A stretch of 63,639 nt of DNA, filler included, from Craspedostauros australis (lineage: Eukaryota): the NCBI GenBank assembly GCA_030167865.1. It is 15 parts of 15 records of this genome, joined end to end, with 100 filler letters (N's around TTAATTAATTAA, not from the genome) between each part and the next. Parts side by side here need not be neighbours in the genome. Positions count along the whole stretch, not along the records: positions 25,371 to 50,071 come from JALAGF010002243.1; 14 more parts are not named here. One strand, given 5' to 3'. The notes under the pieces were generated by a model that searched no databases, was not told the DNA's origin, and saw only the letters and a list, made by a program, of their open reading frames with translations. A program made the translations under genes and the position numbers. Below, piece by piece: positions 19,900-63,639 of this stretch (positions within the stretch are counted from its first letter, which is position 1; every line of letters begins with the position of its first letter).

Positions 19900-19999
19900 N
19901 NNNNNNNNNNNNNNNNNNNNNNNNNNNNNNNNNNNNNNNNNNNTTAATTAATTAANNNNNNNNNNNNNNNNNNNNNNNNNNNNNNNNNNNNNNNNNNNN

Positions 20000-24960: not shown

Positions 24961-25370
24961 TTATCGGCCTTTTTCATACGGACGACGTACGGACGTGATT
25001 TTGGTATTTTTTCGTTGGTAACCATTGGTAACCGCGTAGAGTCTACGACATTCTGGTACAGAAATTTGGTGCTTCTTCGTCCAATCTCGATCAACCGTCT
25101 TCCAAAGACCCGCATCCAATTCTGTTTCGTCTATTGGTCAAGTGAATGACATGGCTGTATTCGTCACTTCATTCTGCTTCGGGTGATGTGCTGGTCAGCG
25201 GTCCAGATTGCTTTTGTGTGTTGTCTTGGGTGTTTGAAGTCAGTCACTAATGCTCGTGACAGCCATGATCNNNNNNNNNNNNNNNNNNNNNNNNNNNNNN
25301 NNNNNNNNNNNNNNTTAATTAATTAANNNNNNNNNNNNNNNNNNNNNNNNNNNNNNNNNNNNNNNNNNNN

Positions 25371-28172: not shown

Positions 28173-31100
28173 TCACAAGTTGAAGAGATCGTTGGCCGTG
28201 AACAGAGTGCCGGAATCAAAGCTGTCGCGGTTGGGGAGGACGACATCGAGTCCTTCACTCGACTCCACGCCCATCCATTCCGCGATGGCATTCCATGGAC
28301 TCTCGTACGGCAACGTGGGGATCAGGTGCCCACGGCCAATGTTGTACGGACCGTCAGGAGACAAGTCATCTGGGTATGTTCCACGGATGACACCACCCTT
28401 GATGCTGCCGCCCATCATGAAACCGTTGCTGGCCCATCCGTGATCAGTGCCACCACGCGAGTTGGGGGTCAAGGTGCGTCCGAAATCAGAGCCGGTCATG
28501 ATCACGACGTCGTCCCATACATTCTGCCTCTCCATTTCAGCCACGAAGGACTCGAGGGCCCCGTTGACTTCCTGGAGCTTGGTGTTGATGTTGTTGCTAT
28601 TGCTCACGGCGTGATGATCGTATCCACCATGAGAAACGAAGATGACTTCGCGTTCGACATCTCTGTCGCCACGTGATTTGATCCATGTCGCGATCGACTC
28701 GAAAGAATCATTCAACCTTCCAGCCTTGAAGCCTTCGACCTGGTGGTTGCTGTAGAGATCTGCCATGATCTCTGTGTCGTTGATGGCATTCACCATCTGA
28801 GTTGACCAAACGTCACCGAAGAGACTGCTGTCATGCTCACTCGCGCTGTTCAAGGAGTTAAGCAGATCATCCATGTCATCAACTTCGGCACCTCTGTTGA
28901 ACGGCGCTGGGTTGCCTTGGGGAAGCTGCGTCACCGGATGATTCTTCTTCGGTGATCCCTTGACCACACGAGAGTTGCCACCAATCATGTTTGCCGAAGT
29001 CCTGTATCCAAGACCTCTCAAGGTATCGAGCATTCGCCCACCGACCCCAGATTCGCTGAGCTCCTTCTCGATGTCGAGCCGCTGTACCTCCTTCTGTTGG
29101 ATGTTGTGGGCAAAGAGCGACGTGCGCGTCTTGGACCTCCAGTCTTGCTTGGTGACGAGCTCATCCAGGACGCCGATGTTGGTGAAGAACATGGCTTCGT
29201 TGCGATTGTACAGTGTTCGCGCAAATGGGAATGCCTTGTTGATGCCGAAGTGCTCGCAGGGTTGATTGCTAGCGTTGATGGTGAGAAGGTCAGACTGTGG
29301 GAGGGCCACCGAGCCACGGATATCGCTGTACTGCTGGTACATATTCGTGGAACCACATCTGGACTTGGGAGCCAGCATGCTGAAGGAGTCCATGCCGCCA
29401 GAGAACATGAGGTAGATCACTGCCTTGTACGTGTTGGTCTTTCGAGGAATGGGCGGCTCAGCCAGGCGCGGTTCGCCGGTCAATCGGACGATGTTGTTGG
29501 AATGGAACTCCGGAGTGGTGACGAACAGCTGCTGTGCCAGTCGAATCGCCTTGTCCTCGTCTGTGTCCATGAAGGGAGAGATGGCATCGATGATGCGTTG
29601 GCGGTTCACCGATTGCAAACGCCCCGCTGTCAGCAAAAGCGAAAGCTCATCAATCAGATCTGACGCTGCAGTCGCGGTGGATGAAAACTGGAGCGATCCA
29701 AAGGACCTGGATGTATCGCCGACGTTTTTTCGGGACTCGCATCGTCTCAAACCGTTTGGCCTCAATTCTCCGAAACCACCGAAGCATTGTCTTGAGGTGA
29801 GGCCTGTAGTAGTAGATGAAGGGAAATGGAAGAAATAGGAGAGACAGCAGAGATTGTTTGGAAAGAAGATATTGGTGAGAAGGTGAGAAGAGAGATATGC
29901 ATATGAAGACAATAGTTGGGGTTCTGATGTGGAATGCCATCGCGTGGTAAGCTGTGAAGCACATGAACGTCAACAGAGTGCTCCGACTCCGACCTACCAT
30001 ACTGAGTCATGCTGAATAGCCCATTGAGCATGCCGGTGACTGTCGATGCTGACATGGCTTGAGCCTCCGGCGAATACAGAGATGCATCTGAGACTCCTCC
30101 AGATGGAACGAAATCGGAGAGGAAGAATGAAAACACGCTCGGGGCCTCGTAGATGCCTTCACCGATCTTGCTCCCCATACCTGCAAGGAATGGCCACATG
30201 ATCGGGCTGTCATTTTCGTACGACATGGATCGCAGGACAGCGATCACCTTGAGCAGCGGCTCGCGAAGCTGACCGTGTGCTGGGTCCGAGTCCAGAGCTA
30301 GAGATCGTGACTCTCTGTCCAGCAAGATGGCTGCCATCAAGGCACCGATGTCACCGTACTGCGCTGAGCCGATTCCGGAATATATGCCCTTCTTGTAGGC
30401 ATTCGAAACTGACTTGACGAAGCGTGGAGATGGGTTAGAGAACCCGAATCGTTGGAGCATTCGAACTGCCAAGAAAGGAGCGTGGCTTGGGTGGTAGAAG
30501 TAATGATCCAGAGCGGCATCGGTCTCATGGTAGGCGTCGCGGGCCTCGGGGTTGGCGAAACTCATGAAGTGGACTGGGTTGCGGAAGGAGAAGTCGTCAT
30601 TTCCAATAGCGACAGTAGGCTGGACGTTCTTCAGGAATAGAACTCTTTTCTTGTCGACAACGCGGAATACAGTTTCCTCGTTGAAGTTGCTGCATGTGCT
30701 TGATCCCCCTCTCGTGTACGCAGTGACTCCCGCTGGCAGCTTCTTCGAACAGCGCCCACGGGATCTATACACTCCCTGAGGCATGGATGTTGGATCTGGG
30801 GCTCCAATGGGGAGATTTCCCAGGATACTGCTCAGAGAAATTGTAGAATCAGTTGCGGAGCTGAAGTATGGGTTGAATGTTGTGCTGGTATCACAGATGC
30901 ATGATGATCCCATCTTGGTGCACGTTCCGCTCGATCCAGAGCAGTTGTTGGATGCCTTGGGGAAGTCGCCATCCTTCCACGATACCTTGAAGAAGTTCTT
31001 CGTGTCTTTTCCAAGACCTGACAGGATGGACTGATCACCTGTTGGATCGGCCTCTATCGATGGTAGTGACGGAGTCACGATCGATTATGATCATATCAAC

Positions 31101-34100
31101 ATGAGTGGCGGGAGTGTAGCATGATGTTCACATGGATATGGATGTAAAGCAAGCAAGCAAAGCAAGACAATGCAAAATCATGGGTTGCGCAAAGGTGTGA
31201 GAGAAGGAAAACGTTGGCCTGTACATACTCGTATGTGCATACTCGTGACCAATCCACAATCTTCTCTTGCATGATGACATTCATACATGCACATACCTGG
31301 ATTGTGAACAATGGCAACATGACCTTCCGTATCGACCTTGGCTTGGATGGCGCAAGAACCTGATGTCCACCTGTATGACAGCGGAAGCCGCTCGCTCATT
31401 GCGTTGCTATCTTTGGCACAAATACCTGCAGTCCTGCTTTGAATCAACGCGATGTCGCATTGCACCTTTCCAATATCAGCGCATCTCTGCTCTGCTGTTG
31501 CGTACTTCACCCTCTCGCCCTGGTAGGCACAAGTCATGGTTGCCCTTGGAATAATACCGGAGTTGAGATCGGCTTGATCACAGCAGCTTGCTTGTGCTAC
31601 TTCGGTGAGAGGGTTAGCACAGAGCATGTTCCTCGTCGCTCCTCTGCTGTTGGAGGAATCCACAACGCGCTTGGCGTCGTCGTAGAATGCATACTCAGCG
31701 CAGGCTGGTCGGACGTACTCGTAGTAAATCGGGGTGGGTGATGCATCGACCCTGATGGTGCGAATAGTGTCGACGTTGAGCTCGTCGCTGTCTTGGTGAT
31801 TGGTGTAGTCCAAGTTCTCTTGCAGCACCACCTTGCCCGGGTAGGTGCAGGCACTGCCATCAATCTGGCTCGCACAGAGCTTTGAATAGAGCGGGCTGGA
31901 GCTGTCGAGGCTGAGGCGAATGATTTCTGGATCGTTCTCCCATGATGCCATATCCTTCTGGAGTTCGGGCGAGGCCTTTGATCCCAGCAGGCGGTACACC
32001 GCTCCCTTCCGGAGGAAGTGCTGGGGTGGAAGGTCAGAGCAGAGCGGGTACTGGTCGCCAAGGAAGCCGTTGTACAAGTTTGATTTGGGGAAAACATCGC
32101 GCCATCGACTGTGGTTTGGGGTTCAACAAAGAGGTTCGTCGAGAGATAGGTGGATAGAATGGAAGCGAAGTGACGTTTGATGAGAGAGCCACGCAGACAA
32201 CAGAATGCAGAAAGCAGAAAGAAGAGAGATTGTAAAGGAGAGTGAGAAGATTGAAGCGGGCCAAGATGTCGGGCTGGGTGGTAGGACGAGGATGCACATG
32301 GGAAGTGACATGGCGTTTCTTTGATGAGATGCATGTCATTTGCAACCTCCATTTCGCCAAGCTTCGATGGACACCTCGCATTCGCATAGTACTTACGCAT
32401 GGATGATCATTGGATCAACCCTGTCGCCGCCCATTTCGTAGTTCCCACGCGTTTGCTGACGTCTCATGCCTGTCCACGCCCTTGCAAATGATGTGATGTC
32501 GTCGTTGTCGTACGTCTGGATCGGTTCACCCTGAGAATCCAGCTTGGCAGTTCCATCCATGTTCAACTCATACAGCCCAATAGAGAAGAGCTGCATGATC
32601 TCTCGTGCGAAGTTCTCATCTGGATGCGACGTGCGGCCGAAGTCTTTGGAGTATTGGAAGCTTGTTGATCCGATCGATGACAGCATCTCACCCATTCGAT
32701 CGTGGAAGGCGACTCTCTTCAGGATGTCACGGTAGCTGCCAAAGGCACCCCGGACGAAGATGTCGAAGTAATCCAGATTGTTCTCAGTACTCTCGGTCTC
32801 ACCCAACAGCTGAGGACTCACCACCAGAATCTGGCTCAAAGCAAAGGCAACCCGTTGCCGCAGTTGATCGGCACTGTTGAGGGAGATGTGCGCCCAGATG
32901 GTCTGTCGTTGTGCGCGGTAGATCGATGTGGGAACTGGGTTGTCGGGGAAGCGATCATCATCGAAAGATTCGACGAAGAATCCTGATCCCAACGATGGAT
33001 CGTTCGCAACTTCACCGATGGATCCACAGACGACCACGCCGTTGCCACTTGGATTGACGGGGACGGATCCAAACTCTTCGCGGAGGCTGTCGGTTTGGAG
33101 GTTCTCTGGAAGCCTTGAGAATGGAATCATATCACCCAGCTTGCCAAGGAGCGGACGCTGCTTGGACTTGTTCACGATGTTTGTGTAGAACCTAAAATTG
33201 CCGTTGGAGTGGTGGCTATTTGGGAACGTGAGTATGGCCAGGTCATGCTCGGCCCACTTCTGGATATTGTATGCGCCGCCGTTGTGTTCAGATGCCCAGG
33301 TGGTGAGATCGTAGACGTTGAGGTTGAGGCTGTGGACATGCTGCCAGCATTGGCCATCCAGTCCCTTGATGTAACCCAGTGAGGTCTTGTCTTCGTCGGC
33401 TTCGCTGCAGGTTTGAGTTTCGAACAATCGAACGTCCTTCTGAAGCGGTGGTTCCTCCATGTTGCCATCAAATCCTGGTTGGAGAAGCGTGGCGAATGCG
33501 GCCTCTGTCTCATCGCCGACATGACGGTAATCGTTGCCCGCGCAGAAGGAGTCGCCCACACGCATCCAGCGAGAATATCGATTCCTGAACCTGGCGCATG
33601 GCGGTGGCTGGTACCGTTGCACTCGTCCTCTCTTGTCGGTGTATGTCTCGTCATTGAGTGGGAGATTTTCAACGGCATAAACCTGCTCGCAGAAGTAGTA
33701 GCAGTAGCAATATGGACGGCGACGATTGTGTGTCGATGAAGTGAGTCACAAGTGGAGCAGGGTAGAAATGAACGAATGCAGCGATGAATGAATCGATGGA
33801 TGGGCAAAGTAACCATGGAAGAACGGTGAGAGAGATATTCGGTTTCGAGGGAAGTGCACTGTTAGATTCGGCAAAGAGAGGAAGCAGCGCACGATGAGCG
33901 TCCCAAAGCATCGACTTACATATCGTCCTTCGATACTGTACACCCTCTTCAAGAAGTCTTCGGTAAGCTTGACAGAGAAGACAGGCGGTTCGTCGGCGCT
34001 GCAGGCTGTCGGAGCCGTGCTCAAGACGCAGTGATCCTCGTTGATGAAAGATCGTGCGACGTTGGGACACTTCACCTTGTTGTCCGAAGACAGGGCGACG

Positions 34101-39202: not shown

Positions 39203-40156
39203 TTGTTGCGTTGACCACGAGAGATCAAGTCGGAGACAGAGAGGGGATCGGGTTGCAGCCGCAGCACGAGTTATTCGTACAGTACAGCAGAATGGATGCT
39301 TGACTGCGATTTGTGTCTGTCTTTGTTCTGCCTCCTTGCAGGGAATGGACGTGACGCGTTGGAGAACACGAATTGGAATGTGGTCGTTGGTGGTGATTTG
39401 TGTCCAACGTCACACACAGAGGGAGCAGTTGGAATGCAGGAATCCACACAACTCAGGCAAGGAAGCTGAGAAAGGAGCGGAGGGGTCGAACGATCGCGCG
39501 GCGCGAGGAGGAAGAAGAAACCATCAACGACCACAAACCCAACAACCGGCGGACCAGCTGACCCACCCGCCACCCGTCATGATTGCCCTGCCTTCGCTTC
39601 TCCTTTTCTCTTCCTTGTTTTTTCTTTTCAATGGTTGTTGATGTTGACGACGTGTTTGATTTTGTGATCGTGTCTGTTTGTTGGTGCAGTGTGTGTCCAC
39701 AGAGAAGACACCGACGAGGTCACCAACAGATGGAGGAGCAATTGCAGATGGAGATCTTGTGCAACGTCAGCCAATCACAACGGGACACACCTTCGCGAAT
39801 CTCGTGAAATTGCGCCGAATGCGTTCTTTGCAGTCAGACAGATCACTAGTTGAATACTCATCTCATATGGTACCCATATAGTATATCGCATTGGTATCGA
39901 TTGTAACTCTGTTGATACTGTATTGAATAAGGACACACTGAACGCAATCATCTCGCGCCAAATCGCCCAACCAACACCATCGTCCGCGTGGACATGATGG
40001 TTGATCTTGGTGTGGATGACACACAACCTTCAACAATCCAAGAACCCAAGCAAGCTCAAGCCAGGCAGAGCATACACGTATTACGCTATACTCCATCGAC
40101 GACTTCATCCGGATGCAACGCAGAGAAGAGGAACGGCAAAGACAACACCGACAAGC

Positions 40157-40603
40157 ATGACTGACGATCAGACGACCACCCCCACCACAACCACCACAAA
40201 CCAAAGCAACTCATGCGAAGTCGAGATCCAATTCCCGCTGGCGCTGCAAGCGGAACAGACCATGCGAGTGCTGCAAGTGGACAACGAGCCAACAACGAGG
40301 GTCACCAAGTCCTTTCGAATCTCCGAATCCGATCCGACCATCATGATAGCGTACGTCTGGTCGTTGCGAACGAGTGCTTGAAGAATCTCTGTTGCTCAAT
40401 GCGCAAACTCACGCCATCAATTCCCGTCTCCTTCCATTCGTTGTCACCCGTTCTGCCTTGGCAGGACCTTCCAATCGAAAGAGCTGAAAATGCTGCGCGT
40501 GGCGTTATCGTCGTTCTCGGATTACGCGACGGTCGTTCTGCGTACAATGAATGAATTCGGCAGCGAAGAGACGTGGTCGCAACAATCTCAGGTGCAATCG
40601 TGA
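40157..40603 (+). CDS. PCC1: EKC/KEOPS complex subunit Pcc1/LAGE3; 2 exons: 40157-40350, 40465-40603
   Basis: The spliced product reads CEVEIQFP...AEQTMRVLQVDNEP..RVTKSF...MIATFQSKELKMLRVALSSFSDYATVVLRTMNEF. The GTACGT...GCAG intron keeps the frame. Confidence 0.85.
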
Positions 40604-40888
40604 TCCGTGGTGCAATCCAGGCGATCGTTGTTATTGTAGTAGATTGGTGGGTGGATCTCTTGCTCATGTAGAGTAGAACAGCGGCTGCGGATGGAGGGTG
40701 GTCGATGACATCCATTCATCGATTGACCGCATGATTGACCGATCAAGGACTCGTGGAACGAAGCGAATGTTCAGCAACGAGGCAATATTAATGAATGAAT
40801 GAATGAATGAATGAATAACATGCCCGTTCTAAGAGGATAATGAAGTAATATCCCACCATAGAGTCGTCTACTTCACGCATCTCAAATT

Positions 40889-42196
40889 CTAACGCCGCAG
40901 ATCCAGCTGGTAGAAGGAGGGATCACGGTTCATGGAATCCTCCGCGTAGTCCTTCCAATCGACATGCTCATCGACCGACAGCCGGATGCCGCCGGTCATC
41001 TTCTCCATCGGCAGAATCGAAAAGGGCTCCTCCATCTGCGCGGAAAGTTCGTCGATGCCCAGCAAGAAGTACGCGATGATCACCGACGCCGGGATCATGC
41101 CCCAATGATTCCACGACGACGCGAACGGCTGATACAGCGCCAGCGGCAGCAGGAAGACCCACACCACGAGGTACCGCGCGGTGTGGCGCGAGTAAAAGAC
41201 GGGCACGGGCGACGTGAAGATGCGCTCGCAGGCGCCCAGCGAATCGCACAGCACCGTCACGGCCTTCTCCACTTCGGCCTGGTACACGACGGAGCGGTAG
41301 TTGATGCTGTCCAACGTCTCCGTGATCTCCTTCAGCGCGCGGGTTGGTTTGTGCCGCACGGCCAGCAGGTCTTCGGCGAAGCCTTGGTCTTTGAGCTGCT
41401 GCAGATCGCGCGAGTAAGCGGCGGCGTCTTCCAACGGGCCCAGGAGGTGGTACATCAGCGAGCGCGGGAAGGCCCAGACAGCGTCCGCCAATCGTTCCAG
41501 CTTCTGCTTGTGGTACGGATCGTTGGCCACCACGTCGGGTTCCATCTCGGCCCACGTCGTACCCGTGCGCAGGCAGGTGCGGCAGCTGTTGATGATGGCG
41601 CCCCACGCCTTGCGACCTTCGTCCCAGCGTTGGTAGGCGGTGTTGGTTCGGAACACCAGCAGCAGCCCCAATGCCGACGACGACAAGGTGAAGGGATCTG
41701 TCGGAAGCCTGAGGATGGGCATCAAGGAATCCGCGCCGAAGATGGGATCGTGCATGACGCCCGCGAGGTCCTGGTATCCCACGGAGAAGAGGGCATTCCA
41801 AATGACGATGGCCGTGCTGATGCCAGTCACGACGGTAACCTCCTTGGCCAGCTGGCGGGCGATGCCCGAGGAAGGCAGCGTGATCAGGTACTTGAACTTA
41901 CGGTTCGTATCGCGGGCCCGCATCCAATCGGATTGGGAGAAGTAGGAACGTCGGTACTGGCGGCTCGCCTCACCGTAGGCCTGAAATCGTTCGAGGTCTC
42001 TGTCGGATGGAGTCGCGGCGTTCAACCGGGTCGTCTCCGATGGCACCTCCACACCTGGGATTGGGCTCTTGCGGATGATGGATTGCTTGCTGGTGGAGAA
42101 TCCATCCACCGACTTTGGCAACGACGACGACAGTGTTGCTGTGAACAGTGCAACGGCGGCCGTCAGGCCCGCGGTTGTGGCGTTGCGAAGTTTCAT
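40889..42196 (-). CDS. Plastid bestrophin-like anion channel (UPF0187/BST/VCCN family), paralog 1
   Basis: LGLLLVFRTNTAYQRWDEGRKAWG, GACERIFTSPVP..YSRHTAR and GIDELSAQMEEPFSILP. Bipartite presequence ending VDG-F. Confidence 0.95.
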   Translation of the reverse strand: MKLRNATTAGLTAAVALFTATLSSSLPKSVDGFSTSKQSIIRKSPIPGVEVPSETTRLNAATPSDRDLERFQAYGEASRQYRRSYFSQSDWMRARDTNRKFKYLITLPSSGIARQLAKEVTVVTGISTAIVIWNALFSVGYQDLAGVMHDPIFGADSLMPILRLPTDPFTLSSSALGLLLVFRTNTAYQRWDEGRKAWGAIINSCRTCLRTGTTWAEMEPDVVANDPYHKQKLERLADAVWAFPRSLMYHLLGPLEDAAAYSRDLQQLKDQGFAEDLLAVRHKPTRALKEITETLDSINYRSVVYQAEVEKAVTVLCDSLGACERIFTSPVPVFYSRHTARYLVVWVFLLPLALYQPFASSWNHWGMIPASVIIAYFLLGIDELSAQMEEPFSILPMEKMTGGIRLSVDEHVDWKDYAEDSMNRDPSFYQLDLRR

Positions 42197-42700
42197 GGTG
42201 GCGGTTGGCAGTTGGTATAATAGTTGGCAGTCGGCAAGTAAGAGAGTTGAGTTGGCGCTGGGTGATTGATGGGTTGATGCCGGATGGTTGTCGCTGTGGT
42301 GATGCTATCCCTTGTTTGCCAGCAATCAAATGTGCGTGGCCTTCGCAACCAGAGGGTAGTTCCGTTTCGAGAATGATGAGGACGGCTGAGAGTCTACTCT
42401 ACTCTGGTCCTTCACTTGTTGTCTGTTGCAATTACAGCAGTAGCAATGGCGACGACGATGATGATGATGGTGGTGGTGGAGATGAGACAGATGGCGCTGG
42501 TGGAGAGAGGCAGGGCTGTTGCCGTTGCTGTTGTTATCCCCAGACCTCCGTGTGTGGTCGATGAGACAGGAAGCTGGCCGCGGCGAGAGGATCATACTCT
42601 CCCCGGGGACTTGTCCTCTGTTCCGTTTGCTCAGAAAGAGTGATGCGAGTTGATGTGTTCTGCGCAGCCATCAAATCTGAAAAATCTTGATTGTCAAACG

Positions 42701-42822
42701 TGACGTCAATGACATTTTTGAATGCCACATGGTACACTTCACTACTACTTGTTGACTAGAATGATTGAAGTTTCATGTCGCATCGAATCAAATCGACGTC
42801 ACGCACTTACGTATACTGACGT
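42701..42822. promoter_or_regulatory. Cluster of CRE/CCRE-type bZIP motifs in the bidirectional bestrophin promoter
   Basis: TGACGTCA at 42701-42708, ACGTCA at 42796-42801 and TGACGT at 42817-42822. The midpoint between the two ATGs is ~42721. Confidence 0.6.
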
Positions 42823-43245
42823 TTCGCGGACAGATTCCAAATCCGGAACCATTTGATGCTGAAGATCGGAACACCCAACCGATCTTTCTTTGGATGGGTG
42901 GTGGCAGCATGCCATCAACCTTCGATGATCATGGGTCATGATGGTGGCTACGATAGTGCGCTGGTCTGTTCTGCCAAGGGGCATCAATCAAACCAAACGG
43001 AGAGAGAGAGAGGCAACGTATCAATCAGTACTGTCATCATCAGCAACGGCCATCATCCTCAGCCACACCACACCAAAGCACTTCGAGTGAAGCCAAGACA
43101 AGTCGTCGCTCGCCAACTCTATCTTTCAAAGTTACCGAACAATCAGATCTGACGGGCTGACAAAGGACGTTGCGACCATACACTCTCTCTCTCTCTCTCT
43201 CTCTCTCTGGAGTATCAGTAAGAAGAGCAAGCAGAGCGAGAAGAA

Positions 43246-44475
43246 ATGAAGCTGCTCACAGCCACACTATCTTTGGCCTTCGTGTCGGCGGCATTCATGC
43301 CGAATGCCGCCTCAGGGTTCAGCACGAAGATCGCTGGCGCAACCAAAGCAGCATCCCTTCCAAGGACGGCGTTGCATGCCGCCACTCCGACCGAGGAGGA
43401 CCTGCGACGATTCCAAACCTACGGCGAGGCGAGCCGCAAGTTCCGCCGTTCCTACTTCTCGCATTCCGACTGGCTCAAGGCACGCGCCGATGATCGCTTC
43501 CTCTACAACCTCTCCTCCATCACCCGTTCCGGCATCGTGCGCCAGCTGACCAAGGACGTTCTGGCCATCGCTGTGATCTCCACCTTCATCGTCGTGTGGA
43601 ACGCCCTGTTCGTGGCAGGATACGACGATCTGTTCGGGTATCACCATCCCGCGTTCATGGATCCCACCTTCCCGCTCCTGAAGCTGCCGAAGGAACCATT
43701 CCAGTTCACCTCCCCCTCCCTGGGACTGCTGCTGGTGTTCCGCACCAACACGGCATTCAAGCGCTGGGACGAGGGACGCAAGGCCTGGGGCGCCATCATC
43801 AACAGCTGCCGCACCTGCCTGCGACTCGGCACGACCTGGTCCGAGCAGACCACGGACGGCAGCAAGCTCCAGCTGGAACTGCTGGCCGACGCCGTGTGGT
43901 CCTTCCCGCGCTCCGTCCAATTCCACATGCTGGGACCGCTGGAGGACGGTGCGCCGTTCGCGCGCGATTTGCAGCAGCTGCGGAACCCCAAATTCGCCAA
44001 CGAGCTGCTGTCCGTGCGGCACAAGCCAACGCGCTCCCTGAAGGAGATCACGTCCGTGCTGAACCAGATCAACTTCTCCTCCATCGTCTACCAGGTCGAG
44101 GCCGAGAAGGCCGTCACGGTGCTGTGCGATTCCATCGGCGCGTGCGAGCGCATCTTCACGTCGCCGCCGCCCGTGTTTTACTCGCGGCATACGGCACGAT
44201 TCCTGGTGCTGTGGATGTTCCTGCTGCCATTCTGCCTCTACGAGCCATTTGCCAACACGTGGAATCATTGGGGCATGATCCCCACCTCCGTCGTGATCGG
44301 GTACTTCCTGCTGGGCGTGGAGGAGCTGGCGGCGCAGATGGAAGAGCCGTTCTCAATCCTGCCCATGGAGAAGATGACAGGCGGCATCCGATTGTCCGTC
44401 GACGAGCATGTCGATTGGAAGAACTATGCGGCCGACAGCATGCAGCGGAATTCAGGGTTCTACCAGTTGAATTGA
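43246..44475 (+). CDS. Plastid bestrophin-like anion channel (UPF0187/BST/VCCN family), paralog 2
   Basis: Same family motifs (LLVFRTN, GACERI, EEPFSILP). Signal peptide ending ASG-F. Collinear with paralog 1. Confidence 0.95.
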   Translation: MKLLTATLSLAFVSAAFMPNAASGFSTKIAGATKAASLPRTALHAATPTEEDLRRFQTYGEASRKFRRSYFSHSDWLKARADDRFLYNLSSITRSGIVRQLTKDVLAIAVISTFIVVWNALFVAGYDDLFGYHHPAFMDPTFPLLKLPKEPFQFTSPSLGLLLVFRTNTAFKRWDEGRKAWGAIINSCRTCLRLGTTWSEQTTDGSKLQLELLADAVWSFPRSVQFHMLGPLEDGAPFARDLQQLRNPKFANELLSVRHKPTRSLKEITSVLNQINFSSIVYQVEAEKAVTVLCDSIGACERIFTSPPPVFYSRHTARFLVLWMFLLPFCLYEPFANTWNHWGMIPTSVVIGYFLLGVEELAAQMEEPFSILPMEKMTGGIRLSVDEHVDWKNYAADSMQRNSGFYQLN

Positions 44476-44711
44476 AATAGCGATGGAACGTGAATGCGAC
44501 TGCATGACTTTAGGTGCAGAGGGCCTCGAAGAAGCAAGCTTATTATAATGGGAACGTATGGTATTAGTACGCCATGATCTCGATTTCACTCCGCTACACT
44601 TGACGTCACTTTGTGTTTGTCAAAGCCATTCCATTCCTTCTCCTCCATAATCTGTAGCACCCCTCCACCTTGCGGCACTCTGTAGCAAACTAAAGTGCAG
44701 GTGGCGACACC

Positions 44712-45688: not shown

Positions 45689-47812
45689 CTACAACATGGT
45701 ATAGGATTCTTGGCTTGAGTCGTCCGCCTCTCCCCAACCGTTCTCCTTGAGGAGAGCTTCGGTGGACTGAATGCAGCGAGCCATGGCTTGCTGTCCAAGA
45801 TTGGTGTGACCAAAGCGCAGGTTATCATTGCACAGGATGATTGGATCGGTCAGGCAGTAGGTGCCATCCTCCTTCTTGATGCCCTGCAGGTCTGTCACCA
45901 TGAGGTACGCTCTGGTTTCCTGGAAGACGAATTTGGTGAAACGGAGCAACGTCTCATCCAAGTGTTCCTGTGCCCAGTACCCGGTGTTGTTGCTGAACTT
46001 GATGAAGTCTTTCTTGTCGTTCATGGGAAGGAGCTGCTCCGCGCAGAAACGACGGTTGCCAGCGTTCTCGTTCGTATCATTTTCCTCTTCGATGACAAAG
46101 CAGTCGAGGAAACTGATCTTTCCGCAACGGAGGGGGCGGTCCAAGGACTCGTTATATTTGTTGGCGAGGAACTGCGCGATAGTGGACTCCTCCATCTGCT
46201 TGAAGTACTTCGAGCGGCTGTTCAGACCTTCGCCGACATGCTTGAAGCATTTGAGCACGAACTCAGACTCTGAAGACATAAGCGTCTCTTGCGTTCGACT
46301 GAGATGGCCATGGTAGGCAAGACGGCATTCGCCTTCCGCAAAGGGTTCCTTGGCACGAAGGACGAACGTCTTCCCTTCGCGGGTCTTATCTGTCTCCTTC
46401 TGCTTTCTGCCGGTGTTCTTGAAGATCACCATTCCCACCCCCAACGGAGCCTTGAGGTCATGCATGTCTTCGATGGGACAGTTGTAGAAGACCTTGGCGG
46501 AGACAACGGGCTTCCATTTGTTCGCGCTCGCAGAGCTATCAGAGCTCGGCGTGATGTTGTACTTCTTCAACATGGGGGAGACGCTGGGAAGCTTGTTGCG
46601 AGTCTTGGGCATACCAAATGCTCGACCGCTGCTGGCGGCGCTGCCCTTGACTGGGCCCGCTTGGACTCCCTTGGCCACGCCGGTGGCAGTCATGGTCTTG
46701 TGGATCGACAGCCGTATGCTGGCCGTCACGGCCTCCACCACCTTGGTTTCATCGTCGAAATCGACGGCGCGGAGAAAGAGGTGGCATTCCGCGAAGCGAT
46801 CGAGCATGGTCTTCGTGTGCGGCGTGATCTTGCCGAAGTTGACAGTCATGGAGCCGTCGCCATGATTGGACATGAGCGTCTTGAGCTCCGCCTTGATGTC
46901 GATATCAGGCGTGCCGTCCGGATAGTCGTCGGGAAGGTCGTGGAATTCCTTGCCGTGGCAGGGGCAGTCGGAGACGATGAAGACCACGCGGGTGGGCTGA
47001 TTCCACGAGAGCTTGTTGGCACTGGCGATGCCGATGGCCATGTCCTCCGGGATGTCGCCGCCTCCGACCGCAGCGACGCCGTCGATGTATGCTTCAAATT
47101 CCGCGACATCGTCCACGAAGTCCAGCGTCTGCACGCGCTTGTCGGAGTCGTGCAAGTCGCGGTATGCGACCAAGGCGAGGCGCACGCGCAAGTGCTGGTT
47201 CGTGGCCTTGACCTTCGTCACGACGCTGCGGACGCAGTTCTTGACGGCAGCAATGTGCCGGTCCATGGAGTACGTTGCATCGATGATGAATGCCAGATCC
47301 ACGGCTTCCGCCTTCTCGACGATGTTGATCGTGCGCTTGATCGCCTCCGCCTTTTCCGCGCGACGGATCTCCATGAGCGCCTCCCGCTTCGCCTGGAACT
47401 TGGCTTTGGCCGCTGCTTCTTCCGCCTTGCGTTGCTCCAGCTCGGATTTTGTTGCGTCCACTTGTTGCACGAGACCTTGCAGAGCCTCCGTGCCAGCGCT
47501 TGTGGCGGAGGTTGCCATCTCCAGGCCCAGGGTCTGCAATCTGCCTTCGAGCTCCTTGGCTGCCTGCGTTGCCGCAAGCTGCTCTCGCATCAACGCCTTC
47601 GCTTCTTCATCCATTTCGAACTCGTTCTCGTCCGGATCGGCGGCGCCCTGGCCATTGGTGGCTGCTGCATTGGGTAGCATCAACCGGTTCAGCTTGTACA
47701 CATCACGATTGGGCTCAAACAGGCTGTCTTCGAGCAAGCTCACCGTGTCATCGTCGGGTTCCTCGACATACGCGCCCAGCAGATCGGGTGTTTTCGGTGG
47801 GCCCGTCTTCAT
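45689..47812 (-). CDS. VwkA-like alpha-kinase: coiled coil, vWA domain and alpha-kinase domain
   Basis: vWA MIDAS DLAFIIDATYSM, VAYRD, GGGDIPED and DCPCHG; alpha-kinase PFAEGECRLAY, FVLK, KFSNNTG, VTDLQG, LTDP and FGHTNLG. Confidence 0.92.
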   Translation of the reverse strand: MKTGPPKTPDLLGAYVEEPDDDTVSLLEDSLFEPNRDVYKLNRLMLPNAAATNGQGAADPDENEFEMDEEAKALMREQLAATQAAKELEGRLQTLGLEMATSATSAGTEALQGLVQQVDATKSELEQRKAEEAAAKAKFQAKREALMEIRRAEKAEAIKRTINIVEKAEAVDLAFIIDATYSMDRHIAAVKNCVRSVVTKVKATNQHLRVRLALVAYRDLHDSDKRVQTLDFVDDVAEFEAYIDGVAAVGGGDIPEDMAIGIASANKLSWNQPTRVVFIVSDCPCHGKEFHDLPDDYPDGTPDIDIKAELKTLMSNHGDGSMTVNFGKITPHTKTMLDRFAECHLFLRAVDFDDETKVVEAVTASIRLSIHKTMTATGVAKGVQAGPVKGSAASSGRAFGMPKTRNKLPSVSPMLKKYNITPSSDSSASANKWKPVVSAKVFYNCPIEDMHDLKAPLGVGMVIFKNTGRKQKETDKTREGKTFVLRAKEPFAEGECRLAYHGHLSRTQETLMSSESEFVLKCFKHVGEGLNSRSKYFKQMEESTIAQFLANKYNESLDRPLRCGKISFLDCFVIEEENDTNENAGNRRFCAEQLLPMNDKKDFIKFSNNTGYWAQEHLDETLLRFTKFVFQETRAYLMVTDLQGIKKEDGTYCLTDPIILCNDNLRFGHTNLGQQAMARCIQSTEALLKENGWGEADDSSQESYTML

Positions 47813-50171
47813 GTTGCCAGAATACTGTCGTATTGGATTGGATTAGATTAGATTATAGAATATAATGTAATATAATATCAGATTAGATGACTCCATACAA
47901 TATGATGCACTCAAAACGGTGTATCCTGTGCGTGCGTGCGTGTTCAGAAGCTACTATTGTGTGTCCTTGCCTCTGGGTTTGTCACAAGAACGAGTATCAT
48001 GGATTGTGTGCATGCGTCTCCGGATTCTGCCCGATTTCTCGCGGTATCCAACGCGAGAAACAGATCTTCAGGTTTTTGCAGGCCCAGCAAAGGAACAACA
48101 AAATCCGTGCCGAACATTCTTTCGCTGCGTGTTGGTGTCAAGCGACCACTCAAAACAATTGACGCGCTGTGTTGTACACGGAGAAATTTTGATGCGAACA
48201 CGCACACAACACGCAAGAGTGCGGACAGAGAGAGAGAGCACATGGTACATGTAGGTGGGATGGGCTGGAGCGTCCACGGCCAACTCTCCAATCGTGTGGT
48301 ACTGTTCATACTTATCGTACCTGCGTATTTCTGCAGGAATAATGTTTGGCAACAGCAGTCTGGATGGAGTATGCCTTTATATTATATTCCATGCATACTC
48401 TACCTTCATGATTCTCTATACTTGAAATCGTAGAATACGAGAAGTTCGTCGCGTCCTCTTGATCGCACCCCTGACGAAACAGAACGAACTATCTGCACCA
48501 CTCGAACACCTCCATTCCCGCCCCCACTCATTCTTGGAAGCCCATGCGCAATGACGGGACATGTCACCATGCGTGCACCTGTCAACTTTCAAACCAAAAG
48601 TCGCATAGCTCACACAACTTCGTGGAGTATTTCTTGCACAGTTCCAATAGAGGTCATCGAGCCGTCCAACATTCCGATCTTCCGCACCATCATGTTTGTC
48701 CCCCTCATCTCCACACACGCATGAGTAGTCGTATGTCATAGCTCGTCCAAGTGCCCATCCATGCAGCTGGGGACGAGTGTAGACAGTCATCCATCTTTTC
48801 CTTCCATCATCTCTTTGCCATGTTCGCAAACAGTCGCGGTAGTCGAAGATGTCATCTTCTTTTCCGACTGTCAGTCACGAGTGATTCTCGTTTGTGTCTT
48901 GGTCGCGATTCCGTGCGTGATTCCCATCCTCCCTACATACACTTTATCTAGCATACGAGTACCATACATCTATTCTCTGCCGCTAAGATCGATGCATGCT
49001 GTTCGTGATTCAGCCTCCTACTGCCCATTGACGTATTCTCCGGAGCGCTCTCTATCCGTGCGACGTCCCTTCCTCGTCTCGCGTGCTGCAAACGTGTTTT
49101 GAAGCAGCAGACTGCGCGTACAATACGACGTGGACGTCGCACCAAGTCGTCATCTACGCGTGCGCACGTGGTCCATGATGTCTTCCTCTCTGCGAATAGA
49201 CACAGGTTTCATCTGGAAACCATAGTAACAGCCAAGATGTTCATGCGAGCGTCTTGGAATGTGAACAGGCCGAAATCAACACACGCAGACAAAAGGTCAG
49301 GGTATGTATTATATGAACCATGCTCGTGGAGTCGAGCACGATCATGAGTGTGTACTCCACTGGCAAGGTGGATCACTCTGTTGCGACAATGTGCTGGCAA
49401 AGCTGGACCTGTTTGCACCAGCACCACGCATCCAACACGCCTGCTGACCAATACAAACAGACAGACACAACGCGATGGAATAGACAGATAGACTATGGGT
49501 ATGTGTGTCTTTCACACACTGACTGATCACAAAAAGCCAATCGTGCGAGTAGTTTGGCGCTACCGCAGACGCCAACACAGGACCGATTCTCATTGTCATG
49601 ATGACAATGGTTCACGCAACTTTCGGCTCGTGACCAATCTGTAAGCATGGAGCACGTGTGCGAGTGATATTGGGTGCAATCACGAATGTCAACACACCCA
49701 AGGCCACACATCGCGAACACCGTCTCTCCACGAATACTTGTGCAGAGACAGTTGAAGTTCATCTAAAGAACGGACTACTTTTCACTCAGTGTGTTCCTTG
49801 TCGCACCTTGAAATTATTTTGGCGCGAAATTTTGGCNNNNNNNNNNNNNNNNNNNNNNNNNNNNNNNNNNNNNNNNNCCCTCCTTCTCCCACACTCATTC
49901 ATGAATCACCACTGACTCAAACACTATCCGAAGTCAATGAGATCAAGATACCCTGGGAACTATGTGCTCTCCTGAACTATTGCAATGCAACCAACCTGAA
50001 TTCCGTTGTCAGCTAAACAACCTGACAACCTTGCATGACAACAGCCAAGAGATCCTCCCTGCTTCAACACANNNNNNNNNNNNNNNNNNNNNNNNNNNNN
50101 NNNNNNNNNNNNNNNTTAATTAATTAANNNNNNNNNNNNNNNNNNNNNNNNNNNNNNNNNNNNNNNNNNNN

Positions 50172-50999: not shown

Positions 51000-52951
51000 T
51001 TCGGAAGGGATACAACGGTATGAGAAGTGGAACACAATTGTTGGAAATCCGGGGTTGTAGTAGCAGACTAATCTGTTATCAGTCTGTACCGTTTTAGAAC
51101 TGTGATCACAACATGCTCATCTCCTTTCGATTCCGATTCCATGACAAGCAAAATCTGCAGTAGCTGCCCACGATCACACTCTCGTGCATGGCTGCTTTCA
51201 TCTGCATCCTCATCTTACATTCACGTTGGTTCATTGCCTGCTTTGTTTGATGTTGGTGAGCACCTACATTCGTCTGATGCTCCTTGTAGACCTGTAGGTA
51301 CCTTGCCTCTGGTCTCATGTCAGTTCACTGGTCCCACTTTGGCTTCATGTCATTGCATTCCTCTTCTGGTCATCTCGATGGCTACCTCTTCATCTTTGGA
51401 ACTTATCGTTATCTGGATCGTGGTCTTGGGCAATTAGGGATCACCTCTGTTTCGCTTTCTCACATTAGGTTCTCAGGGACGCATCGACTTGTTCAGATAT
51501 ATTGGCTGTCGTGCTCATTCGATTCACTCATGGGCTGATGTATTGTTGTTGACATAGATCTCTCGGTTCCCGACCGTTATCGGGACATGACCGAGTAGGC
51601 CACTGGATGAGGGTGCTTGGACGTCGCATAAGACAGGTAAGGCCATTGGGCTGTCCGAGTGCAACTGGTCGATTGCTGTGTTGCAGATTGTCTGAAAGAT
51701 GCTATTGGGGGTTGCAGCAATCATGGGTATCTTTGCACATAATACCATCGTGATTGCAGTCAGTCTGGGTGGGAGCTGCGGTAGAACAAGGTATCTTTGC
51801 AAAGTCGTACCCCCGATTCCTGACACATGTTGATGAAAGTTCGCAGGGAAAGTTATTTGTGCCTGTGACGAGCCCCAAGATGATACGTATAAGCCTCCAT
51901 TGCATCCACGACAGTGATGGCGAACAAAGTCATAACCAGGTGAAAATAGTCGTCCCTTGTCACCCAGATCCTCTCAAGGCCCAACACATCTTGGCGAACA
52001 TGGTTGTGGGTGTCCACAGCATTGGAAGCACCGAACTACTTACTGGCCACCTCGGGTCTTGGAACCTCCTTCGTCTGATGCCTGCGTTCGTCATCGATCC
52101 ATTTCGCGACGCAGGATGTGGATGGCCCCAAATGACCTGATCCAGAGGAGAACAAAAATGGAATCACGGACGTGCGCGAGTATTTGTATCCCATGGCATA
52201 TATCTCTGTTGGGGTGTCATTGCGATTGACATCCCCATCGTCATGGTTGCGTTTCAATAGTAGCTGTGTTCCAGAGGGCCAATCGCTCATCTTTTCTTGT
52301 ATAAACTTGAGGGGGAAGCCAGCGGACGAAGTCTTGATGATGCCAATAAATCCTGATTTGGTCTTTGAAGCAATTTCCAAGCATGTCTGCACAGATGCGA
52401 ACCACGAATCTCCCAAGAAGATGCTGTTGGGGAGGGCAAAGTCTGACGTGTCGATGTGGATGTTGTTGCGCCCGATGTCATGTGTTGCCAGCGCCATGCG
52501 CAGAGAACAGGCGACAGTTGCCTTCCCGCAATCTCTGATGTGATCAGCCTGGTCCATCTCTCGCTTTCCGTGTTGAATCTCCAAATGGAGCATGATACCG
52601 GTTTCACTATCGGCAACAGTTTTGAACTCCACCCCAAGCGGTTCTGGCTTGCGCGGAATGTGCGTCAGACGCGGAAGGCTTCCTGTTGGGGACACACGAG
52701 GCTTATACGCGGTCATACTTTCGTCCACGACTTTGACCTGTCCTGGAATGATGGTGTCGCGCCAGCGCTTGTTAAACAACTCCACCCCAGGTTGGATTTG
52801 CCACCATTTATCCTCGTGTTGCCTGGCCGGGTCTGAGAACAAGTACGGGATGAAGTGCTTGCGGGTGTGTTGGAAGCGATGCAAAGGCATGTGTGTCATG
52901 ACATTTCTTACCTTGCACAAAGCTTTCGTTGATCCTGTCGCCCCAGAGCTT
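51000..52951 (-). mobile_element. Degenerate piggyBac-like transposase, family 1 (5' part missing)
   Basis: VVDESM, PRKPEPLGVEFK and GDSWFAS; after a stop/frameshift, AVDTHNHVRQD..LERIW. The lower boundary is approximate. Confidence 0.88.
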
Positions 52952-56740: not shown

Positions 56741-57049
56741 NNNNNNNNNNNNNNNNNNNNNNNNNNNNNNNNNNNNNNNNNNNNTTAATTAATTAANNNN
56801 NNNNNNNNNNNNNNNNNNNNNNNNNNNNNNNNNNNNNNNNCTCCTCACCAACAACAACGACTTGATCACTCTACGTTCTCGGTGCGGTATCCTTCACACC
56901 CATCTACGATTACGTTCTAACACAAACAGTGTCTTCACTCACCAGCTTGTCACCCTCGTCCTGAAAGACTTGATCTCTCTTGAAGGACTCGTGTGATTTC
57001 GCTGTGTACGATAACGAGATAACACCTACCATGAAAAATGAAGTCGGAA

Positions 57050-59101: not shown

Positions 59102-59201
59102 NNNNNNNNNNNNNNNNNNNNNNNNNNNNNNNNNNNNNNNNNNNNTTAATTAATTAANNNNNNNNNNNNNNNNNNNNNNNNNNNNNNNNNNNNNNNNNNN
59201 N

Positions 59202-60650: not shown

Positions 60651-60750
60651 NNNNNNNNNNNNNNNNNNNNNNNNNNNNNNNNNNNNNNNNNNNNTTAATT
60701 AATTAANNNNNNNNNNNNNNNNNNNNNNNNNNNNNNNNNNNNNNNNNNNN

Positions 60751-62180: not shown

Positions 62181-62280
62181 NNNNNNNNNNNNNNNNNNNN
62201 NNNNNNNNNNNNNNNNNNNNNNNNTTAATTAATTAANNNNNNNNNNNNNNNNNNNNNNNNNNNNNNNNNNNNNNNNNNNN

Positions 62281-62949
62281 CGCGCAAAACGTGTGTATGG
62301 ATACCTCCGAAAGCGTTCTGATGCCGCCATCAGGTTCAGAACAGGAATTCCAGATCACGAGCGCCACTTTGAGATCCCTGATCATGAATGGATGTACTCT
62401 GTGTATGGTGACGACGAAGAGGAAACCGCGGACGACGATCCAACACCCAAGGGCAAGGCAGTTCGTATGACGACGTTTGTAGATGCCAATCTCATGCACT
62501 GCAAGGTGACAGGCAAATCTGCAACTGGCGTCCTCCACCTGCTCAACCAGACACCCATCGAATGGTTCAGCAAGCGCCAGACCACAGTCGAGACTGCAAC
62601 CTATGGATCGGAATTCGTTGCGGCAAGGCAAGCAACAGAGCAAGTGATTGCAATGCGCCTCACTCTTCGTGCAATGGGAATTCCACTGGACGGACCTGCC
62701 TGGATGTTCGGAGACAACCAGAGCGTGATCACATCTTCCACCATCCCAAACAGTGTGTTGTCCAAACGACACAACGCACTAGCGTACCACCGCGTGCGTG
62801 CCGCAGTAGCTGCGAAGATCCTGCATTTCTGCAAGATAGACGGAACGGAAAACGTAGCCGACGTCATGACCAAGTTCCTTCCATGGGCAAAGTACTGGCC
62901 GTTAGTGAGGCCGCTTCTGTTCTGGAAAGGAGAGACAATGGCTGGATGA
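62281..62949 (+). mobile_element. Ty1/copia (CoDi-like, family B-related) RT end and RNase H
   Basis: EWMYSVYG, FVDANLMH, ETATYGSEFVAAR, GDNQSV and NVADVMTK. Confidence 0.95.
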
Positions 62950-62967
62950 ACAAGACCTCTCGACTAT

Positions 62968-63639
62968 AGGGGAGTGTCAACATCTAGATCGAAATTTAGG
63001 CTAACATCACACATGACTGGAACGTGATTCGACTCGATTGATAGTATAGTCGAATGAGCCTTGATGATGCGAATGGTGTTCGGGTTCTATTGTCATCAGA
63101 TATGACGTAGGCACTGACATCAGAGAATGACGTCAGAGGACCGTCACTGAGGTCCAAGGAATCAAGAATAAATGTTAGTCATGGTACACTGACTTGTCTA
63201 GTGACGCCAGGTGCATCAGTGAGCACGTGGTAACAACAATTAGGAAATAGTCCTGTGATGTCAGAGATGATGCAGGCAGTCGACTGACGTCGACGGTTGG
63301 GATATATGAGTCCTATGGGATTCTAAGACCAGCCAAGACCAGGCAAGATTAGACAAGATCAGACAGAGATGTAGAAAGACCCAAAGGCGAGAATAACACG
63401 AGATATCGTGTAGATCGACATGCCATCTTGGGCAATGTTTTAGAAAAGACTGCGAGAGAAACCACGAGGTAATCGAGCAGCACGTTAGCAACCGTGCAAT
63501 AGGCACCATCTTTAGAAATAGGAGATCATCATCTCATAATCCAAACTCAATCATCAATTGACACACCAACTAATAGAAACAACAACAACACCAAACACAC
63601 CAACTCCACCTCTTGGCTTGATCACCCTGGCGGCGTAGT
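62968..63639 (+). repeat. PPT (AGGGGAG) and 3' LTR starting TGTCAAC at 62975
   Basis: Purine tract just after the pol stop, then TG. Homologous to the solo LTR at 52952-53660; cut off by the window end. Confidence 0.9.

Follow-up and report, generated by a model that had tools for sequence, protein, structure and literature searches.

Whether two neighbouring bestrophin (BST) genes of a diatom are switched on together from one control element, and by which signal, is the question raised by a locus of Craspedostauros australis. Bestrophins of the thylakoid have been proposed as the step at which HCO3- enters in the CO2-concentrating mechanisms of diatoms. Transcript-level control of BSTs was not seen in T. 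pseudonana, and their control in diatoms outside Phaeodactylum is what this locus touches upon. The locus was analysed within a window, meaning the whole stretch of 63,639 nucleotides in which 15 contigs are joined end to end. A sequence-only reading of it had proposed a single CO2 switch that co-expresses both genes. The features under discussion are collected in Table 1.

Table 1. Features of the bestrophin gene pair and its spacer; positions count along the window.
Feature	Position	Strand	Remarks
BST-A	40889..42196	minus	intronless single ATG-to-stop ORF, 435 aa; A-type paralog (Ala175, Val331)
ATCAAATC, copy 1	42670..42677	plus	copy 2 at 42787-42794; a GACGTCA site follows shortly 3' of each copy
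Spacer between the two start codons	42197..43245		1,049 nt; midpoint 42721
CRE palindrome TGACGTCA, full 8 nt	42701-42708		further GTCA/TGAC half-sites at 42693 and 42710; an ACGT core at 42698 overlaps
Inverted pair ACGTCA (42796-42801) and TGACGT (42817-42822)	42796..42822		TACGTA palindrome (42808-42813) between
(CT)n microsatellite	43183..43210	plus	36-63 nt before the ATG of BST-B; complementary (GA)n at 43000-43012
BST-B	43246..44475	plus	intronless single ATG-to-stop ORF, 409 aa; B-type paralog, with Ser and Pro in the diagnostic columns

Membership of the Bestrophin/BST-VCCN family was assigned by a full-length match to PF25539 (Bestrophin_2) above the gathering score of 27 bits. BST-A matches with E 1.5e-63 (215.4 bits, profile positions 3-287 of 288) and BST-B with E 3.1e-58 (198 bits, positions 7-287 of 288), so that the family identity proposed earlier is confirmed for both ORFs, nearly from end to end. 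In sequence comparison, residues 77-411 of BST-A match the bestrophin-like protein of structure 7ek1, plant VCCN1, with E 2.5e-32, which places them in the same family at low sequence identity, and the KpBest-type structure 4wd8 and its relatives match at about 2e-13. An AlphaFold2 model of BST-A built from a 15-row alignment was of too low a quality for comparing folds (mean pLDDT 57, pTM 0.43). The two proteins are collinear, with 63% identity over 424 aligned positions, and their intact ORFs face each other with their ATGs; the description as intronless, collinear head-to-head paralogs is thus upheld, while the divergent transcription claimed with it would follow from the orientation of the ORFs on opposite strands. 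The exact proteins were not found in a collection of 15 billion proteins, and no PtBST sequence of P. tricornutum is among the 120 matches listed. Third codon positions of both genes are rich in G and C (GC3 of 0.82 for BST-A and 0.84 for BST-B), the two highest values among the 17 ORFs examined in the window, which would be compatible with high expression.

Plastid import in diatoms depends on a bipartite presequence, in which a signal-peptide-like hydrophobic N-terminus is followed by an ASAFAP-type junction with phenylalanine at +1. By inspection, hydrophobic windows cover residues 8-27 of BST-A and 1-22 of BST-B and are followed by VDG/FST and ASG/FST, respectively, while homologues carry SAFAP, NAFAP, or NGFAP at this junction. 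The signal-peptide-like N-terminus with a G/F junction in both proteins would be as expected for diatom plastid import, and the earlier statement that the proteins are plastid-targeted is retained here as a prediction made by eye. A long C-terminal extension like the one that directs PtBST3 to the pyrenoid is present in neither protein. BST-A and BST-B are identified as genes for predicted diatom chloroplast anion channels of the BST/VCCN family that form an old, linked head-to-head pair.

The age of the pair follows from the divergence of its coding sequences. Over 403 aligned codons the nucleotide identity is 70%, no more than 40 of 81 four-fold third positions agree although GC3 is near 0.83, and the inverted similarity between the two halves of the locus ends at the CDS boundaries. 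Judged by these sequences, the duplication is old and its synonymous sites are saturated. A recent duplication or recent gene conversion was rejected on the same three observations.

Both genes belong to a clade of 21 sequences that divides into two types, with BST-B falling in the B-type clade (support 82/87). Two alignment columns are fixed differently in all 10 A-type and all 11 B-type sequences: alanine against serine at A175, where the LGLLLVFRTN helix starts, and valine against proline at A331, in FTSPxP. Three uncultured relatives each have an A-type protein and a B-type protein recorded on contigs of one and the same length (14,257 nt in one relative, 7,990 nt in another, and 18,561 nt in the third), so that linkage of the types appears to have been retained there. 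A metagenome scan yielded 10 further bestrophin loci at 41-55% identity, none of which comes from this clade and none of which holds a second bestrophin, and no relative was found in further scans of genome contigs and viral contigs.

The retention of both types, apparently linked, in three relatives could be explained if A and B had to assemble, or preferred to assemble, with each other into a mixed pentamer, with the shared spacer keeping their stoichiometry. This idea, which is compatible with the other readings of the locus, could draw on the two type-fixed residues in otherwise highly conserved motifs and on Chlamydomonas BST1-3, which are reported to interact (PMC6708349, citing Mackinder 2017). 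We nevertheless regard it as improbable: the two type-specific columns stand against 140 that are conserved across both types, which redundancy or mild subfunctionalisation would fit equally well, and the solved KpBest-type entries consist of five chains of one sequence each. Furthermore, knockout of PtBST1 alone gives a strong phenotype without compensation by PtBST2, and the passages available from the same study do not show PtBST2 to be required together with PtBST1 (PMC11142338). More improbable still would be a conserved two-subunit cassette, in which one central bZIP enhancer would fire both genes at low CO2 in a constant ratio. The products would form an HCO3- channel of the thylakoid, built as a mixed pentamer, and the roles of the subunits would be set by the Ala/Ser difference at the start of the pore helix and the Val/Pro difference in the FTSPxP loop.

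The layout is that of a bidirectional pair, with adjacent genes on opposite strands and their 5' ends facing. Bidirectional promoters are defined by transcription start sites (TSSs) whose separation is at most 1,000 bp (PMC2648788, PMC7817982); with 1,049 nt from ATG to ATG, the pair would come under this definition if its two 5' UTRs add up to at least 50 nt. The 1-kb spacer also offers room enough for two independent promoters, an observation that counts against a shared module. No tRNA and no credible Rfam match was found in the spacer, the sole Rfam match of the locus being a sub-threshold miRNA inside BST-B. With a cut-off of E 0.01, none of three small ORFs in the spacer matched Pfam, the one hit at E 0.07 falling short of it. 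The sequence ATCAAATC, two copies of which lie in the spacer, occurs 5 times in the window against 3.75 expected. Contigs of one sequencing run, presumably of RNA (share of words 0.08), match 40700-40879 and 44517-44700 at 100% and, in addition, a 37-nt piece inside BST-A, leaving the rest of both genes and the spacer uncovered, a pattern which says nothing on expression.

The centre of the spacer is distinguished by its TGACGT-core sites. As proposed from the sequence, and as the coordinates bear out, three such sites, including the full TGACGTCA palindrome, span an interval of 122 nt in which the midpoint of the spacer lies. The region 42693-42822 contains 5 of the 7 ACGT cores and 7 of the 11 TGAC/GTCA half-sites of the spacer. 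When the spacer was shuffled with its dinucleotides preserved, 32 of 20,000 shuffles contained at least three sites of this pre-specified motif within 122 nt, and the triple is the only one of its kind among 42 distinct sites in the 61,310 non-N nt of the window. A similar motif density in random intergenic DNA had been named beforehand as an observation that would speak against the proposal. Approximated on this one window of 15 joined contigs, with a crude annotation of 17 ATG-ORFs of at least 150 aa, the spacer has 2.86 sites per kb, a density 4.5 times that of the remaining non-ORF DNA, where 26 sites in 40,490 nt amount to 0.64 per kb.

These numbers argue against an explanation which we hold to be doubtful on the whole, namely that the cluster is a chance or non-functional one, that each gene has its own proximal promoter, and that the head-to-head order is no more than a trace left when the genes were duplicated in inverted orientation long ago. 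The presence of a perfect 8-nt CRE palindrome together with an inverted pair, and the apparent linkage of A and B in three relatives, also speak against it. Several observations nevertheless fit it. Some cluster of three sites in 122 nt is contained in 86 of 1,000 shuffles of the whole window, in which TGACGT itself is not enriched (49 strand matches against 42.5 expected). In an unbiased ranking of the 6-mers of the spacer the motif comes 23rd of 693 with an uncorrected p of 0.009, and although it leads the 6-mers of the central 200 nt, with 4 occurrences where 0.149 are expected, that interval was chosen post hoc. The distance from the sites to the ATG is 505-621 nt for BST-A and 424-538 nt for BST-B, so that each site is at least 424 nt from either start codon, and the 496 nt adjoining BST-A are devoid of TGAC/GTCA half-sites. 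The spacer also lacks mirror symmetry, the sign by which duplicated promoters would be recognised. Finally, no TGACGT-core site was found in the upstream DNA of the 10 distant BST loci, of which there is at least 900 nt for only three (L006, L007, and L009) and 241 nt for one (L005). The cluster is therefore non-random for the pre-specified motif and this spacer, but not striking across the window or in the unbiased ranking.

The case for CO2 as the signal comes from published precedent. Transcripts of PtBST1-4 of P. tricornutum are induced by low CO2, and PtBST1-3 have TGACGT/C motifs in their upstream DNA (PMC11142338), so that the same motif class recurs in a second diatom, which again argues against chance. 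The CO2/cAMP-responsive elements CCRE1 (TGACGT) and CCRE2 (ACGTCA) were described in ptca1, between -86 and -42 relative to the TSS (PMC7378808). In the spacer both hexamers are present, together in the palindrome at 42701 and singly at 42796 and 42817, and the inverted arrangement of CCRE1 and CCRE2 is that of the ptca1 and ptca2 promoters (Ohno 2012 and Tanaka 2015/16, via the citing papers PMC7378808 and PMC7464044). By contrast, CCRE3 (TGACGC or its complement GCGTCA) is absent throughout 42197-43245, and where the ptca1-type elements include TGACGC, are placed close to a mapped TSS, and serve one gene, the sites in the spacer are far from the ATGs and are flanked by two genes. According to a review citing Ohno 2012, CCREs require a proper distance from the minimal promoter (PMC7464044). 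Moreover, TpBST1/2 transcripts are reported not to respond to CO2, and PtBST4 is induced by low CO2 with no motif in the approximately 300 bp examined (Nigishi et al., PMC11142338). This shows that the link between the motif and the CO2 response is a loose one.

The hexamer TGACGT is a site for bZIP factors in general and also the canonical aureo box, and the sites may be functional bZIP sites that answer to another signal, such as blue light or the circadian clock via aureochromes or another diatom bZIP, rather than a CO2/cAMP switch. Aureochrome-regulated promoters are reported to have at least two TGACGT/NNACGT sites at 100-150 bp (PMC4937327); the sites at 42796 and 42817 start 95-116 nt from TGACGTCA at 42701, which agrees with the aureo-box count and approximately with the spacing, binding by an aureochrome being putative. 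CCRE-type hexamers are listed in the non-coding regions of light-regulated LHCX genes (PMC4915529), and loss of PtBST1 alters NPQ, which ties BSTs to light acclimation (PMC11142338). The palindrome TGACGTCA is over-represented across the window (7 copies against 2.12 expected, a number reached in 8 of 1,000 shuffles), with one copy within an ORF and another between two gene 3' ends, and in this it resembles a general-purpose element. We consider a signal other than CO2 unlikely, as induction by low CO2 is the best-documented behaviour of BST genes. CO2 and light inputs are, however, described as converging on the same CCREs (PMC7464044), so that the two readings are perhaps inseparable.

The cluster is best described as a plausible but unproven shared control region of both genes. 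Of the single CO2 switch proposed at the outset, a non-random central CRE-like cluster and the PtBST precedent remain; the assignment of the sites to CO2/cAMP specifically is weakened by the aureo-box identity of the hexamer, the absence of CCRE3, the distance to the ATGs, and the distant BST loci. The explanation we prefer is a shared bZIP module that co-drives BST-A and BST-B, most likely with a CO2/cAMP-plus-light input, and as a whole we give it a probability of roughly 45%. The compact CRE-like module in the middle of the spacer would be an upstream element bound by one set of bZIP factors, which would drive both genes together. Its most likely input would be CO2/cAMP-plus-light signalling, as for the CCM genes of Phaeodactylum via PtbZIP11-type factors. 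When CO2 becomes limiting, transcripts of both channel genes would rise, and with them the supply of HCO3- to the thylakoid lumen. If the divergent pair with one compact bZIP module is conserved, it would lend itself to use as a natural dual reporter of signalling by CO2, cAMP, and light, and it would hint that the stoichiometry of the paralogs matters.

Among known systems, the bestrophins of P. tricornutum are the closest in kind. PtBST1-5 have been described, with PtBST1 and PtBST2 corresponding to Phatr3_J46336 and J26635 (Nigishi et al. 2024, PMC11142338), and they include plastid bestrophin paralog pairs with about 66% similarity, comparable to the predicted plastid pair of this locus. 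The TGACGT/C motifs upstream of PtBST1 occur on both strands, as they also do in ptca1 and in the spacer (PMC11142338). The motifs of PtBST1 lie within approximately 300 bp of the start codon, whereas those of the spacer are central between two genes, and the available passages of that paper describe no head-to-head shared promoter for the PtBSTs (PMC11142338). TpBST1 and TpBST2 of T. pseudonana (THAPSDRAFT_4819/4820) are likewise two paralogs, with consecutive gene numbers and about 66% similarity; their proteins are reported to accumulate at low CO2 and to be localised to the pyrenoid. Promoters with aureo boxes such as that of dsCYC2 share with the spacer the TGACGT core and the presence of multiple boxes about 100-150 bp apart (PMC4937327); the literature passages available on aureochromes and BSTs contain no link between the two. 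In Chlamydomonas, BST1-3 (Cre16.g662600, g663400, and g663450) are paralogs of the same family with neighbouring locus numbers on one chromosome and are reported to be induced by low CO2 under the control of CIA5/CCM1, that is, not through bZIP factors and CREs, and they belong to the green lineage and have low sequence identity to the pair described here. Clusters of BST paralogs with TGACGT-type motifs upstream are already known, and the locus of C. australis is, as far as its sequence tells, one more example from a previously unsampled diatom and an ordinary extension of what the model diatoms have taught.

The two bestrophin genes, BST-A and BST-B, face each other with their ATGs across a gap of 1,049 nt (42197-43245, hereafter the spacer) and both match Pfam profile PF25539 (Bestrophin_2) over almost its entire length (BST-A at E 1.5e-63, BST-B at E 3.1e-58). 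As the frames are complete and the proteins collinear, with 63% identity across 424 positions, the head-to-head paralogs proposed by the sequence-only reading are borne out. By sequence comparison, residues 77-411 of BST-A match the plant VCCN1-type “bestrophin-like protein” structure 7ek1 (E 2.5e-32), and bacterial KpBest-type bestrophin structures match it at about 2e-13. At both N-termini a hydrophobic segment leads into a G|F junction (VDG-FST and ASG-FST), an arrangement that would fit a diatom bipartite plastid presequence; homologues on metagenome contigs have SAFAP, NAFAP or NGFAP at the position equivalent to the G|F junction. The exact proteins were not found in a collection of 15 billion proteins, the top match among those listed being 69% identical, and the named matches of a neighbouring NAD-binding gene are all from diatoms (59-66% identity). 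Judged by these similarities, the DNA comes from a diatom none of whose near relatives has been sampled.

Coordinates of the bestrophin genes, spacer motifs, palindrome copies and linkers in the window
Feature	Position	Strand	Remark
BST-A	40889-42196	minus	435 aa, complete ATG-to-stop frame
BST-B	43246-44475	plus	409 aa, complete ATG-to-stop frame
CRE palindrome TGACGTCA	42701-42708		spacer
ACGTCA	42796-42801		spacer
TGACGT	42817-42822		spacer
TGACGTCA copies	22832, 27785, 42701, 44601, 53486, 60614, 63128		window
Linkers, part 1	1613-1712, 3024-3123, 5530-5629, 14035-14134, 15541-15640, 18296-18395, 19900-19999		
Linkers, part 2	21257-21356, 25271-25370, 50072-50171, 56741-56840, 59102-59201, 60651-60750, 62181-62280		

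The 15 contigs of the window are joined by fourteen linkers of the form N44-TTAATTAATTAA-N44, designed to give stops in all six frames, which account for the 28 copies of TTAATTAA and make any neighbourhood across them artificial; the bestrophin pair lies within the 24.7-kb piece 25371-50071. On its left, BST-A is convergent with a fragment of a gene for the KEOPS subunit Pcc1 (40016-40381, plus strand, and 40465-40879; E 1.4e-4, profile positions 1-42 of 75), which is probably broken by an intron. One contig of X1, a sequencing run guessed to be RNA, has its end at position 40879, which is 10 nt away from the stop codon of BST-A, and an (ATGA)n microsatellite (40787-40816) lies just past that codon. 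Downstream of BST-B is a vWA and alpha-kinase gene (45689-47812, minus strand). The same contig as these diatom genes carries adjoining DUF1501 and DUF1800 genes (28173-33565, minus strand), a pairing known from planctomycete-type bacteria; the DUF1800 gene has a cytochrome b5-like N-terminal part and is broken over several frames. A PiggyBac-like DDE_Tnp_1_7 transposase fragment (52036-52899, minus strand) is found on a neighbouring contig.

Across 403 aligned codons the two genes are 70% identical in nucleotides, and four-fold third positions agree in only 40 of 81 even though GC3 is 0.82 and 0.84. The inverted similarity ends at the CDS boundaries, with no mirror symmetry in the spacer. By this degree of divergence the duplication is old. 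Two trees were built, one of 56 rows (both window proteins and 54 of the 120 listed matches, namely P0001-P0040, 12 named matches, P0056 and P0107, with 66 omitted) and a careful one with 27. Each tree places the two genes within a fully supported clade of 21 sequences from uncultured relatives, beside the bestrophins of Cylindrotheca/Bacillariaceae. BST-B groups with ten relatives at moderate support (82/87); under outgroup rooting BST-A and the remaining members form a grade, not a clade. Two columns, A175 (Ala/Ser) and A331 (Val/Pro), are fixed by type in 10/10 A-type and 11/11 B-type sequences. Three relatives have one protein of each type on contigs of equal size (14,257, 7,990 and 18,561 nt), equal size being the ground for placing them on the same contig; therefore the pair probably predates those taxa and has stayed linked since. 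The locus is intact and tidy: an A-type and a B-type diatom bestrophin gene, putatively plastid-targeted, that diverged long ago and are still linked. Clustering of such paralogs looks common among diatoms: Cylindrotheca closterium has at least three (P0066, P0072 and P0249) on one contig of 199,526 nt, with accession numbers at most 6 apart, which suggests a tight gene cluster, and P0078 is probably a fourth on it. TpBST1/2 likewise bear the gene numbers 4819/4820, and PtBST3/5 the numbers J46366/J46365 (PMC11142338).

Retention and linkage of both types, together with two type-specific residues within conserved motifs, could be taken to mean that BST-A and BST-B assemble into a heteropentamer, and Chlamydomonas BST1-3 are reported to interact mutually (PMC6708349). 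Such an assembly is nevertheless improbable, as 140 alignment columns are conserved alike in both types against the two that differ and the solved KpBest-type entries each consist of five chains of one sequence.

The sequence-only reading had placed three TGACGT-core motifs within 122 nt around the spacer midpoint, and they are found there. When the spacer is shuffled with dinucleotides preserved, 32 of 20,000 trials give at least three sites within 122 nt. The window has 42 distinct sites in its 61,310 non-N nt, and no other three of them lie so close together. That reading had also suggested a comparison with other intergenic DNA; by a crude annotation of 17 ORFs, core density is 2.86/kb in the spacer versus 0.64/kb in the window's other non-ORF DNA and 0.66/kb in ORFs. 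Region 42693-42822 holds 5 of the 7 ACGT cores and 7 of the 11 TGAC/GTCA half-sites of the spacer, none of which lies in the 496 nt adjoining BST-A. For a motif specified beforehand and for this spacer, the cluster is thus more than chance.

The case is weakened by window-wide measures. Shuffling the whole window produces some cluster of three in 122 nt in 86 of 1,000 cases, TGACGT is not enriched across the window (49 observed, 42.5 expected), and an unbiased ranking puts the motif 23rd of 693 spacer 6-mers (p 0.009, uncorrected), where it is outranked by words of the CAATCA/ATCAAA type and by (GA)n/(CT)n microsatellites. The palindrome TGACGTCA is over-represented in the window, present 7 times where 2.12 copies are expected, a count attained in 8 of 1,000 shuffles. 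A fortuitous cluster between two independent promoters is a less likely explanation that still deserves weight. Of the seven palindromes, a glycosyltransferase ORF contains one and the other six are outside the 17 large ORFs; one precedes the ATG of the NAD-binding gene by 143 nt, one lies between two 3' ends and several are in transposon-rich contigs. Over-represented in such varied contexts, TGACGTCA looks more like a general-purpose CRE of this genome than a marker of CCM genes, perhaps a general element of promoters or LTRs. In region 62392-63290 a looser second cluster, four core sites in 430 nt (62861, 63103, 63128, 63285), takes in the tail of an ORF and the DNA beyond it. The ORF has no Pfam match; to the eye it resembles a Pol of the Ty1/copia type in its C-terminal portion, and therefore these sites may sit in a retroelement LTR.

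The spacer may have a second recurring word, ATCAAATC/CAATCA, the latter with 7 copies against 0.86 expected. On the plus strand ATCAAATC stands at 42670-42677 and again, 117 nt further on, at 42787-42794, with a GACGTCA site just 3' of each copy. Upstream of BST-B are (GA)n (43000-43012) and complementary (CT)n (43183-43210), the latter 36-63 nt from the ATG.

The best single explanation, at a probability of roughly 0.45, is that the central cluster would bind bZIP factors as a module common to BST-A and BST-B, with CO2/cAMP-plus-light signalling as its most likely input. The idea of TGACGT motifs upstream of bestrophin genes is already published for Phaeodactylum. According to Nigishi et al. 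(2024, PMC11142338), PtBST1 has TGACGT/C within about 300 bp upstream (2 sense, 4 antisense), PtBST2 has four, PtBST3 one and PtBST4 none; PtBST1-4 transcripts are all induced by low CO2 (PtBST1 more than 40-fold), PtBST4 despite its zero motifs in the region examined, and TpBST transcripts show no CO2 response. These low-CO2-induced genes give the motif type a precedent. No TGACGT-core site was found upstream of ten distant BST loci, only three of which offer at least 900 nt, and the literature searched on diatom bestrophins, TGACGT motifs and bidirectional promoters describes no BST genes that face each other across a common promoter.

The comparison with known systems is mixed. The long C-terminal extension that directs PtBST3 to the pyrenoid (PMC11142338) has no counterpart in BST-A or BST-B. 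The ptca1 elements CCRE1-3 are TGACGT, ACGTCA and TGACGC and have their effect between -86 and -42 relative to the TSS (PMC7378808); such hexamers are also listed for LHCX non-coding regions (PMC4915529). What stands of the proposed CCRE identity is the hexamers TGACGT and ACGTCA and their both-strand arrangement, shared with the PtBST1 and ptca1 motifs; TGACGC is missing, and the sites lie 424-621 nt from the ATGs, farther than the PtBST1 motifs. TGACGT is also the “aureo box” of aureochromes. A bZIP input other than CO2, such as aureochrome, is a rival that deserves weight, though less probable than a chance cluster; the spacing of 95-116 nt in the spacer compares with the 100-150 bp reported between multiple boxes in aureochrome-dependent promoters (PMC4937327).
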